DNA of 4,863 nt, taken from positions 1 to 4,863 of the IMG/VR virus record IMGVR_UViG_2778261453_000001. One strand, written 5' to 3'. The DNA comes from a virus. Taxonomy: Duplodnaviria; Heunggongvirae; Uroviricota; Caudoviricetes. Shown piece after piece: positions 3,001 to 4,863 of this stretch. The position numbers are program-made. Every line of letters starts with the position of its first letter. Position 1 is the stretch's first letter.

Positions 3001-4863
3001 GCCTAACCCATTGATTCTTCCACAATCCTCAATTTGAGGATGTCGGATAACACCATTTTTAGCCAGCATTTCGATAGTACGTTTCACATTGTCATGACGC
3101 TTACCTGTAAGCTCAGAGATTTCAATGCTGGTCATTTTGATGACGTTGCTATTTATCAGCTCGTTCATTGTCATGTCCTCTCATATTGAAAATTCACCAA
3201 TAAAAAACCCAGCCGAAGCTGGGTTTGTTAAGTTGTCAATTGTCAGTAGCGATGTAGTGAAGGAGGTAATTCTTTGTTCTTAAGCCTTACCCATGCGGAA
3301 AGATTCGTTGGTCCGTCTGGCTCATTAATATCAACATCTCGTGTGTGATTGATTAAAACGTCTCTCGCCATTCCAATAACATACGAGAACTCATGACCGT
3401 AGTCGTAACATCTGCCGGAATAGTTCGATTGAATTTGTTTTAGCGCCGGATACAGTTCGCGGAATAATGCCTGTGAGCGGTTGGCATAATCCCATAGCCA
3501 TACAAGGCTGTTTGCTTCTTTTGCGGAAAGCTCGTTGGTGCTCTTCTCTTGTTTGCCAGTATTTTTCTCGCACTGGCTGAAATAGCAGTCTTCCAGTTTT
3601 TCGAACACATCCCACGCCTGATCAGTTTCGAGCATTTTTGCGTGACGGGCTGCGCCTCGTTCTGTCCAGAGGATGAGGGAGCGGGTTTTTGGGGAAATTT
3701 GTAAACCTCTTTGAGAGGTTCGCAAACTATCAAGTTCACAGCCACTTACTTTAAAGAAGTGTTTTCCTGCAATGAAACGACATTCATTACGTTTGAAGTT
3801 CTGCCGTATATGTTTTTCTTCAGTTTTGTATAGATTTGCCAATAACCCTGTTGTTATTACAGGGACGTTAGAGTAAGTAACGACGACGAGGGATTCTACA
3901 GCGAGTTGCATGGTCATAACGACCTCCTTTAGCTTTTTCTGAAATTACCACCTCTGATAGTGGTGTCGGGAGGTTCAGAACGGCCTAAAGAACCGCGGAC
4001 TTATTCCCCTTACGGGTGTTGTATTCGTCGCCCTCCCGACATTGTTCGGGGATGTGACAGCACATTGTGCTATCACTGAATAACAGGCATAAAAAATCCA
4101 ACACTGACGGGGTTGGTTTTGTCCGCTTTAGAGAGGTTCTGACGCCTCACAAAGATAAATCTACAAGTAACGACCTATAACGTCAAGCCCGATCGGTTTC
4201 GAGCATTTTTGCGTGACGGGCTGCGCCTCGTTCTGTCCAGAGTATGAGGGAGCGGGCTTTCGGGGAAATTTGTAACCCTCTTAAAGATGGTTGCAAATTT
4301 TGTGAGTTACTTAAAGTAACCCGCAAATTTTGTGAGTAGTTTAAAGCTACCCGCAATTCTTTAAGGTCATTACCAACAACTTTGAAAAAGTGTTTCCCTT
4401 CAACGAAGCGTACTTTGTTCTCATGATGATTCTGGCGAATACGCACCGGCTCAGTGCCGTAAAGCTGCGCCAAAAGTTCGGTGGTAATAACAGGAATCTG
4501 GTTATGGGTGATCGGGGAGAGAGTTTCAACAGAAATTTGAGTTGTCATAATGACGCCCTCTGGTGGTTTCTTAATAACTCACCACCGACGACGCCAATCG
4601 TCTGGTGGTGAACTGTGCAGGGTTGGCGTAACCGGGAAACCGACCGGCGCGGATCTCTCCGCCCCCACACAGCCCACCATACTTCAGATGTGCGCGTGCA
4701 TACGACAATAAAAAACACGCTCGCGGCGTGTATCTGTCGCGGTCTCTATCCAGGACGCCAATCCCGACGCCAGATTTTGCTGGCGCGTGAGGAATATAGC
4801 CCCGAATAAATCATCGCGTCAATCACCTTGTTTTCCTCGCACGATGTCTTAGCCACCGGATAT

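Follow-up and report, generated by a model that had tools for sequence, protein, structure and literature searches.

A candidate c4-type antisense RNA module with two mutually exclusive leader hairpins ahead of an antirepressor-like gene in a Shiga-toxin-type lambdoid prophage

Introduction

Why should a short motif be laid down three times, twice in direct and once in inverted orientation, over the ribosome-binding site of a phage gene? This question is raised by positions 4556-4611 of a 4,863-nt stretch of a Caudoviricetes genome (IMG/VR record IMGVR_UViG_2778261453_000001, positions 1 to 4,863; hereafter the window), which precede ORF6N-1, the first of two genes for ORF6N-domain proteins on its minus strand. 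A preliminary description of this DNA had seen in the motif either an attenuator or a switch sequestering the Shine-Dalgarno (SD) sequence or, alternatively, iterated protein-binding sites. Based on the analysis reported here, we are highly confident that a c4-type antisense RNA here adjoins the leader it targets, the elements a2 and b2 being the target sites. The more comprehensive explanation that 4556-4611 joins a c4-type antisense RNA gene to the leader of its regulated gene, in a module of the type of P1 immI and Gifsy-1 isrK and with a linked closure in cis, is in our view probably correct. Antirepressor control decides whether a Shiga-toxin prophage remains silent, and an RNA lock on a nin-region gene of the Ant family bears on induction and toxin release.

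Parts of the c4-type module

On the plus strand, TCTGGTGGT has two exact matches only, at 4559-4567 and 4601-4609, and an imperfect inverted copy, TCACCACCGACG, is located between them at 4579-4590, which confirms the layout given in the preliminary description. The motif GGTGGT/ACCACC occurs six times compared with 1.5 expected occurrences, a count reached by none of 200 shuffles. All genes of the window are carried by the minus strand; read in this direction, the three elements are termed copy 1, central element, and copy 3, respectively (Table 1).

A scan with the Rfam models returned four minus-strand matches above the gathering score in the order a1b1/isrK, C4, gene, Xcc1, gene, while hits to rivX, CbSR14, mir-3132, STnc100, and Plastid-ycf2 scored far under it and were disregarded. 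The fold of the C4 match consists of a 17-bp closing stem (4679-4663 : 4622-4606), the hairpins P2 and P3, and a 3' overhang ACCA (4606-4603). Taking the annotation of P1 c4 as a basis (start GGUGGGG after UUAU, end ...GCC-ACC), the mature RNA is predicted to extend from G4678 to A4603 (76 nt), with G4678-C4607 as outer pair of the closing stem. The sequence is compatible with 5'-end formation by RNase P (U4679|G4678, a G-C first pair, 3' ACCA), whose role in c4 processing is summarised in PMC5320573. Copy 1 takes in the final 6 nt of the closing stem's 3' strand as well as the ACCA tail and extends 4 nt beyond it; this tail would be the tRNA-like end used by RNase P. The 5' arm of the same stem, UGGUGG (4679-4674), represents a fourth member of the motif, able to pair with either ACCACC copy, and UGGUGA of the central element copies this arm in the same register. 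The predicted RNase P sites spell AUG at -2, -1, and +1 in both c4-like RNAs of the window (4681-4677 and 4042-4039) as well as in P1 c4 (locus L168, 392-395).

Upstream of the c4 RNA, transcripts from the promoter-like site would begin near 4786, which is where the isrK match starts. The latter ends in an intrinsic terminator (stem 4731-4715, U run 4714-4709), the read-through of which would yield a transcript covering c4 and ORF6N-1. The two hairpins of the overlapping a1b1 element may present the c4 RNA with decoys or targets: the loop of the second carries UUGGCGU (4761-4755), complementary to c4 a' in seven out of seven bases, with a predicted a':a1 duplex energy of -10.3 kcal/mol. Direct repeats D1 and D4 connect the a1b1 element to 4579-4599.

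Downstream, a' and a2 are complementary in seven out of seven bases (-10.3 kcal/mol) and b' and b2 in six out of six (-8.1 kcal/mol), with both c4 patches lying exposed at an opening cost of about 0. A pairing of a' with GGCGU at 4557-4553 (-8.6 kcal/mol), considered as a third c4 site located on the SD sequence, was not counted because relatives with another a' (type of locus L122) keep GGGCGUC and hence show no co-variation. Taken together, the module shows the tested features of the C4 family except for the position of b2 beside the SD sequence and a weak upstream b-type site.

Table 1. Positions of the features in the window and of the corresponding Gifsy-1 positions, mapped by counting from the isrK start at 4786.
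Feature	Position	Strand	Sequence, score, or remark
Promoter-like site	4822-4793	minus	-35 TTGACG 4822-4817, 18-nt spacer, -10 TATATT 4798-4793; 10/12 consensus
c4-a1b1 (RF03163)	4799-4747	minus	50.5 bits, gathering 46.7; two hairpins
isrK-type short RNA (RF01394)	4786-4710	minus	75.5 bits, gathering 50; model positions 1-77
Gifsy-1 G28-C162	G4759-C4625	minus	a1:a' pair
Gifsy-1 G31-C159	G4756-C4628	minus	a1:a' pair
Gifsy-1 +107 AUG	AUG 4680	minus
C4 antisense RNA (RF01695)	4684-4601	minus	63.7 bits, gathering 45; full-length model match 1-87
b'	4641-4636	minus	GGUUUC; P3 loop of c4 RNA; complement of b2
a'	4629-4623	minus	ACGCCAA; single-stranded joint of c4 RNA; complement of a2 and a1
Copy 1	4611-4599	minus	UCACCACCAGACG; 5' arm of hairpin 1; conserved as (U/C)UC(A/G)CCACC in relatives
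a2	4597-4591	minus	UUGGCGU; hairpin 1 loop, 5 nt past predicted c4 3' end
Hairpin 2	4595-4552	minus	16 bp, 13-nt loop
Central element	4590-4579	minus	CGUCGGUGGUGA; 3' arm of hairpin 1, 5' arm of hairpin 2
b2	4570-4565	minus	GAAACC; -22 to -17 from start codon; adjoins copy 3
Copy 3	4567-4556	minus	ACCACCAGAGGG; 3' arm of hairpin 2; 3-nt overlap with b2; contains the SD sequence
SD sequence	4560-4556	minus	GAGGG; start codon AUG 4548
ORF6N-1	4548-4183	minus	121 aa; Pfam: ORF6N domain only; gene under control in the proposed module
Promoter-like site, module 2	4186-4158	minus
Upstream sites, module 2	4142-4136; 4131-4126	minus	UCAGAAC; CUAAAG; complementary to joint and loop of the downstream RNA
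Terminator-like hairpin, module 2	4116-4098	minus	followed by a six-U run
sRNA-Xcc1 (RF02221), second c4-like RNA	4040-3957	minus	75.7 bits, gathering 53; closing stem ends C3965, tail ACCA 3964-3961
Xcc1-type RNA, module 2	G4040 to A3961	minus
Tail hairpin, module 2	3964-3960 : 3951-3947	minus	ACCAC : GUGGU
a2'	3943-3937	minus	UUCAGAA
b2'	3932-3925	minus	CUAAAGGA; over SD sequence AAGGAGG; start codon 3917
ORF6N-2	3917-3243	minus	Pfam: ORF6N and P22 antirepressor C-terminal domain (P22_AR_C)

Co-variation among relatives

A total of 160 loci encoding relatives of ORF6N-1 was fetched, resulting in 42 distinct sequences from c4 to the start codon, to which P1 was added; 33 of these sequences, P1 included, were used for the co-variation alignment. 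The c4 stems together with the a':a2 helix were found paired at 97.5%, compared with 84% in shuffles and 32-48% when the partner was slid. Within the RNA, pairing reached 98-99% in the closing stem and 97% in P2 and P3, with 14 of the 27 stem pairs changing on both sides, and none of 500 shuffles attained the observed values. The a':a2 helix was paired in 95% of the alignment cells, and five of its seven pairs change on both sides.

For the reading of a' and b', six relatives whose predicted minimum free energy (MFE) structure of c4 differs from the family fold were left out, since automatic parsing failed. At least eight different a'/a2 pairs exist among the relatives, including ACGCCAA/UUGGCGU, GUUCCAA/UUGGAAC, GUGCUAA/UUAGCAC, AAGACCAA/UUGGUCU, and GUGAGAU/AUCUCAC. 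The b'/b2 classes likewise change together (GGUUUC/GAAACC, GUUUCGA/UCGAAAC, UCCUUUUUC/GAAAAAGGA, GGUAGAU/AUCUACC, CGGUGAU/AUCACCG). Cognate duplexes are more stable than non-cognate ones both for a (-7.7 vs. -4.9 kcal/mol) and for b (-10.2 vs. -6.7 kcal/mol). Such classes would correspond to the immunity specificities expected of a c4 system, with the RNA putatively repressing antirepressor synthesis in trans. The identities of the parts, their complementarities, their co-variation, and the predicted energies are direct results of this analysis.

Hairpin 1, formed by the c4 tail and the bases following a2, is the local MFE structure in all 42 distinct relatives and in P1. Its 8-bp core is mostly conserved in sequence, three of its pairs being compensatory (e.g., UUCGCCACC with GGUGGCGA), and its four inner pairs are peculiar to the lineage of the window. 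Alignment column 86 co-varies with both partners of the central strand. One relative, the IMG/VR contig L145, carries exactly the Gifsy-1 layout, namely a 45-codon open reading frame (ORF) from the c4 AUG, the UGA of which overlaps the antirepressor AUG (AUGA); no other relative shares this arrangement. The central strand of the same relative, GGUGAU, is also similar to the b' loop CGGUGAU of this locus, and either of them can pair with its b2 AUCACCG.

Two exclusive hairpins and the ribosome-binding site

In hairpin 1 of the window, copy 1 and the central element pair over 12 bp with one bulged A, to which the MFE structure adds three pairs and a 4-nt loop; at -22.2 kcal/mol (z -5.0), none of 200 shuffles folds as well. 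Hairpin 2 joins GGCGUC plus the central element (4595-4581) to ACCACC-A-GA-G-GGCGUC (4567-4552) at -23.0 kcal/mol (z -4.2; one of 200 shuffles folds as well), thereby pairing four of the five bases of the SD sequence and five of the seven bases of a2. Accordingly, the two hairpins are mutually exclusive and about equally stable, with one of them burying the SD sequence, and the pairing with copy 3 is not the weaker one as previously described. The sequence GGCGUC appears three times in the region, in the a1 site (4754-4759), in a2 (4590-4595), and between the SD sequence and the start codon (4552-4557); it pairs with itself through G-U pairs and in this way provides the lower stem of hairpin 2.

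Considering the complete window RNA (17 coding bases included), the combination of c4 stem and hairpin 2 is predicted at -67.5 kcal/mol, and that of hairpin 1 with a helix of the c4 5' arm (4679-4674) and copy 3 (4566-4561) at -68.6 kcal/mol, the ensemble being split approximately 1:2 between them. Once c4 is removed, the leader is predicted to fold into hairpin 2 with the SD sequence almost fully paired.

The accessibility of the SD sequence in the window amounts to 0.21 compared with 0.45 in shuffles. It falls below the 10th percentile of shuffled leaders in 9 out of 25 lineages (Fisher combined p = 6e-5), and its median opening cost is 5.1 kcal/mol with the c4 stem folded vs. 3.7 kcal/mol with hairpin 1 (14 lineages vs. 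1, Wilcoxon p = 4e-4), both p-values being optimistic as the lineages are related. MFE structures hardly distinguish the two states in the number of paired SD bases (3.7 vs. 3.3 of 5). A switch read from these structures alone was therefore dropped; only the ensemble opening energies differ, modestly and consistently. The occluding sequences vary by lineage, with CCU after GGUGAU being common and GAUGAUUC:GGAUCAUC serving in another lineage. Occlusion of the SD sequence is thus recurrent, but not universal.

Proposed mechanism and its alternatives

In the mechanism we propose, the promoter near 4822-4793 would give rise either to a short IsrK-like RNA stopping at 4709 or to a read-through RNA. 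The latter would be cut by RNase P before G4678 and trimmed from its 3' side until trimming halts at ACCA4603, releasing the 76-nt c4 RNA. Its patches a' and b' would pair with a2 and b2 of the leader, and as b2 lies directly 5' of the SD sequence, ORF6N-1 would not be translated. Copy 1 would thereby be the acceptor-like 3' end of c4, and the central element, by imitating the c4 5' arm, would capture copy 1 in a hairpin showing a2 in its loop. Copy 3, in turn imitating copy 1, would take over the central element as soon as copy 1 sits in the c4 stem or is cut away. The resulting hairpin would bury the SD sequence, so that the ribosome-binding site would be closed in cis whenever the antisense RNA folds or is excised, with c4 in trans as a sequence-specific lock. 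In this way, the c4 context would account for copy 1, for the loop of hairpin 1, and for copy 3 being placed next to b2.

Several points weigh against this explanation, starting with the relatedness of the lineages mentioned above. Processing, repression, and the use of the alternative pairing as a switch are deduced from sequence, and all energies are predictions. At the upstream end, the b-type site comprises approximately 5 bp including one G-U pair (-2.8 kcal/mol) and is weak, and the order of the upstream sites is reversed relative to P1, with the a-type site in second position. At the ribosome-binding site, b2 ends 4 nt 5' of the SD sequence and not on it, thus at the edge of the 30S footprint, while P1 and most relatives show an overlap of the two. 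To free a2 and b2, hairpin 2 has to be melted at a cost of 11.4 kcal/mol, compared with a duplex gain of 18.4 kcal/mol, and in a model with both sites occupied the SD sequence becomes more open. As a consequence, repression in this variant would have to be steric, exerted by a bulky complex ending 4 nt from the SD sequence.

Further points concern the generality of the shared strand. The preliminary description had proposed looking for the same motif arrangement upstream of ORF6N homologues in other prophages; related arrangements and a conserved tail hairpin do occur there, but the third copy ACCACC is confined to the one sub-lineage with b2 GAAACC. In most relatives, the c4-stem-folded state is favored by approximately 5 kcal/mol, and near-bistability is therefore particular to the variant of the window. 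P1 shows no occlusion of the SD sequence. Its tail hairpin (CUGCC:GGUAG) occupies bases next to those of the following hairpin (CAGGUU:AACCUG), and both can form at once; a mutually exclusive three-strand layout was therefore rejected for P1, and our claim is limited to conservation of the hairpins, without exclusivity.

In respect to the SD-sequestering switch suggested initially, these data provide a divided answer: two exclusive pairings of about equal energy exist, one of them burying the SD sequence, but copy 3 is lineage-restricted and the occlusion is not universal. We therefore only tentatively suggest, as a possibility somewhat short of even, that the shared central strand couples c4 folding or excision to closure of the ribosome-binding site, with the antirepressor-like gene being closed both in cis and, by c4, in trans. 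The predicted burial of the SD sequence by the shared strand is a lineage-specific elaboration.

The alternative that survives best, although we rate it as rather unlikely, comprises the same parts without a switch: copy 1 would be set by RNase P and 3' trimming, the central element would serve only to close the hairpin presenting a2, copy 3 would be a by-product of the sequence adjoining b2 and the ribosome-binding site, and burial of the SD sequence would have no regulatory use. The restriction of copy 3, the bias of most relatives toward the folded c4 stem, and the P1 leader with neither occlusion nor exclusive hairpins would all be expected in this case, and two copies of the 9-mer are no rarity in shuffled sequence, 38 of 200 shuffles giving at least two matches with at most one mismatch. 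It accounts less well for a hairpin 2 far more stable than its shuffles, for an occlusion recurring in lineages with unrelated leader sequences, and for the consistent sign of the difference in opening cost. Furthermore, the natural third-copy variants ACCACU, ACCAUC, and ACCAUU all still pair with GGUGGU by means of G-U pairs.

A second alternative, which could also act as a contribution to the proposed mechanism and which we regard as unlikely, is coupling through a leader ORF as in erm-type leaders. Ribosomes starting at AUG 4680 in the c4 5' arm would read 33 codons across c4 and hairpin 1, stop at the UGA (4581-4579) within the central element, melt hairpin 2, and start ORF6N-1 31 nt further on, the repeats serving to establish this coupling. 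A precedent is found in the Salmonella Gifsy-1 locus isrK - orf45 (STnc1160) - anrP, where, according to Hershko-Shalev et al. 2016 (PMC4825925), orf45, which begins at +107, is translated and full AnrP synthesis depends on it, the first orf45 AUG being required for full AnrP induction. AUG 4680 occupies the same position (+107), and AUGG at the predicted c4 5' end is invariant or nearly so in the 33 relatives and P1. However, neither frame nor length is kept, as the stop may come as early as codon 3 or later than codon 45 and each of the three frames is in use downstream, and no usable SD sequence precedes AUG 4680 (GAAG at 1-nt spacing). AUGG also suits RNase P, the sites of which prefer U at -1 and G at +1, as in A-U-G-G. 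Cleavage would split this AUG, and processing and translation start at this site would therefore exclude each other. The Gifsy-1 authors likewise found the orf45 peptide sequence to be variable (PMC4825925). A conserved leader peptide was rejected on the basis of translation from AUGG in the 33 relatives, in which the AUG is conserved but not the frame, the length, or the peptide.

An extension of the proposed mechanism, which we consider improbable, would turn the four alternating strands (c4 5' arm, c4 tail, anti-tail, and copy 3/SD sequence) into a bistable device linking c4 maturation to what becomes of the mRNA from which it is cut. With the c4 stem intact, RNase P would excise the RNA, and the leader would close over the ribosome-binding site. 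In the alternative fold, the central strand would hold the tail, with ACCA masked and the RNase P site engaged in a helix with the SD strand; this precursor would escape processing and persist as an antirepressor mRNA that is partly open and can be translated. The equilibrium of the two folds could be shifted by the IsrK-like RNA or by a ribosome initiating at AUG 4680.

Hairpin 1 as an intrinsic terminator or attenuator, with the other pairing as antiterminator, can be regarded as extremely unlikely. Its stem is G+C-rich with 12-15 bp and the nin regions of lambdoid phages contain terminators, but GUUAUUAAG following the stem provides no U run, the corresponding bases in relatives are not U-rich either (GAUAGUUUAG, GAUAAACAAAAC, GAUUAUCC), and the true terminator of the unit is located upstream (4731-4709). 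An attenuator in the sense of transcription termination is not supported, as no U run follows either of the two hairpins and the terminator scan lists none at 4579-4611.

Two exact direct copies at a distance of 42 bp, enclosing an inverted one, would be compatible with iterated DNA sites bound by a protein of phage or host, but the chance of this is close to negligible: the fold is strand-specific and includes G-U pairs (hairpin 2 at -23.0 kcal/mol on the minus vs. -12.3 kcal/mol on the plus strand), which points to RNA and not DNA, the changes in relatives are compensatory between arms and not conserved per site, each copy has an RNA role in a known system, and all lie inside a transcribed leader and not at a promoter.

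Genes and second module of the window

The region upstream of ORF6N-1 is 99.7% identical to positions 17100-17423 of phage VT2-Sakai, located between ninE and a gene annotated ant, which identifies the window as the nin region of a Shiga-toxin-type lambdoid prophage. Compared with its relative in VT2-Sakai, the 244-aa Ant, ORF6N-1 is truncated. Pfam matches downstream of ORF6N-2 are a Rha/KilAC antirepressor, NinG, NinH, and antiterminator Q, followed by two tRNA genes and a TerB protein. Taking the gene functions from annotation, the module would control an antirepressor operon, as the intact VT2-Sakai counterpart is annotated ant, ORF6N-2 combines ORF6N with P22_AR_C, and a KilAC-type Ant comes next.

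A 114-nt direct repeat of 89% identity links the 3' end of ORF6N-1 (4184-4297) to the middle of ORF6N-2 (3613-3726). The ORF6N-1 stop coincides with the end of the similarity to ORF6N-2, ORF6N-1 has no P22_AR_C, and the corresponding place in VT2-Sakai is occupied by one ant gene only, encoding 244 aa. ORF6N-1 thus has the appearance of a remnant that was cut short when the second module inserted or recombined. Within ORF6N-1, a 30-bp tandem repeat (4293-4356; 2.1 copies, 85% matches) encodes LRVALNYSQN / LRVTLSNSQN. It lengthens the match to the ORF6N domain (residues 12-115 vs. 12-95 in ORF6N-2) and draws the weak and spurious Rfam hits to rivX and CbSR14. Downstream of Q, a strong terminator-like hairpin (1178-1157) is followed on the minus strand by tRNA-Met(CAT) and tRNA-Arg(TCT) (529-605 and 706-781), which is the late-promoter/tR' and tRNA layout typical of phages carrying Shiga toxin; this part of the window may give rise to a late transcript that is short and terminated, similar to StxS or lambda 6S RNA.

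A complete second module of the same plan is arranged in tandem before ORF6N-2 (3915-4186, minus strand). Its tail hairpin corresponds to the weaker ACCAC/GTGGT hairpin noted earlier at this place, and it is indeed unremarkable by energy (-7.3 kcal/mol, z -0.1). Within the Xcc1 family, however, the hairpin starts at the ACC tail and is kept through compensatory changes in 26 relatives (variants GCCACU:AGUGGC, GCACCAG:CUGGUGC, CUACCAG:CUGGUAG, CGCCA:UGGCG, and GCCUGA:UCAGGC), which makes 3964-3947 a true counterpart of hairpin 1. The two modules of the window barely cross-pair and therefore look like two immunity specificities in one prophage.

Comparison with known systems

The immI region of phages P1 and P7 is said to have been described by Citron and Schuster in 1990 as c4 antisense RNA - icd - ant. 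P1 immI (NC_005856) shows the same order as the window, i.e., promoter, upstream sites, c4, a2 a few nt later, b2 at the ribosome-binding site, and an antirepressor operon. In P1, a2 starts 4 nt after c4 and b2 is on the icd SD sequence, a' is the joint and b' the P3 loop, and the latter two hold for the window as well. Both RNAs share a 17-bp closing stem, the 5' end U|GG, the tail ACC, and a score above the Rfam C4 threshold, and in both a hairpin of the c4 tail and downstream bases encloses a2. The window differs from P1 by an ORF6N protein in place of icd as first gene, by b2 beside and not on the SD sequence, by the a-type upstream site in second position, and by an intrinsic terminator (the isrK form) between upstream sites and c4. 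A central strand common to two exclusive hairpins, the second of which buries the SD sequence, is found in the window only; the P1 hairpins coexist and leave the SD sequence unburied.

For the Gifsy-1 locus, the report (PMC4825925) describes a read-through mRNA that is translationally silent and activated by IsrK in trans, alternative structures demonstrated experimentally, and the validated pairs G28-C162 and G31-C159. Both loci show a full-length isrK match and share a short terminated RNA and a read-through mRNA from one promoter with an antirepressor downstream. The a' of the window corresponds to C159 and C162, the positions mutated in Gifsy-1, and G114-C175 as well lands on complementary bases, the geometry being equal to the base. 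In that paper, the c4 region is treated as a coding ORF and as part of the mRNA switch and likened to P4 CI RNA, not to c4; in its available part, the hairpins downstream of the c4 stem do not appear (PMC4825925). The orf45 stop overlaps the anrP start (AUGA), while the 33-codon ORF of the window ends at 4581-4579, 31 nt short of the start codon, and does not reproduce this coupling. A search for literature linking IsrK or c4 to this O157 locus found none. On the basis of these likenesses, the Gifsy-1 isrK-orf45 locus can be reinterpreted, since it aligns base for base with a P1-type c4 module, and the isrK-type short RNA carries a site complementary to c4.

Further similarities extend to other leader-derived RNAs and leaders. 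P4 CI RNA and N15 CA RNA, compared here by description, are likewise small RNAs cut from the leader of their own operon, with an RNase P 5' end and pairing sites both upstream and downstream, but they act mainly via premature transcription termination. SD-sequestering and erm-type leaders resemble the window in the succession of segments GGUGG / CCACC / GGUGG / CCACC, pairing either as 1:2 plus 3:4 or as 2:3, with segment 4 carrying the SD sequence. In contrast to these leaders, segments 1 and 2 are here the closing stem of an antisense RNA acting in trans, and neither a conserved leader peptide nor a stalling signal is present. The sRNA-Xcc1 is similar to c4 in its closing stem, two hairpins, joint, and ACC tail; it belongs outside the Rfam C4 clan, and in the window it is part of a c4-like module in which complementary sites of its own flank it on both sides. 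The c4-tail hairpin is thus conserved across c4-like families, and in this phage it competes with a hairpin burying the ribosome-binding site. Altogether, the kind of system is already known from the P1 immI / Gifsy-1 IsrK module, to which the alignment of isrK with c4 and the conserved tail hairpin are useful additions.

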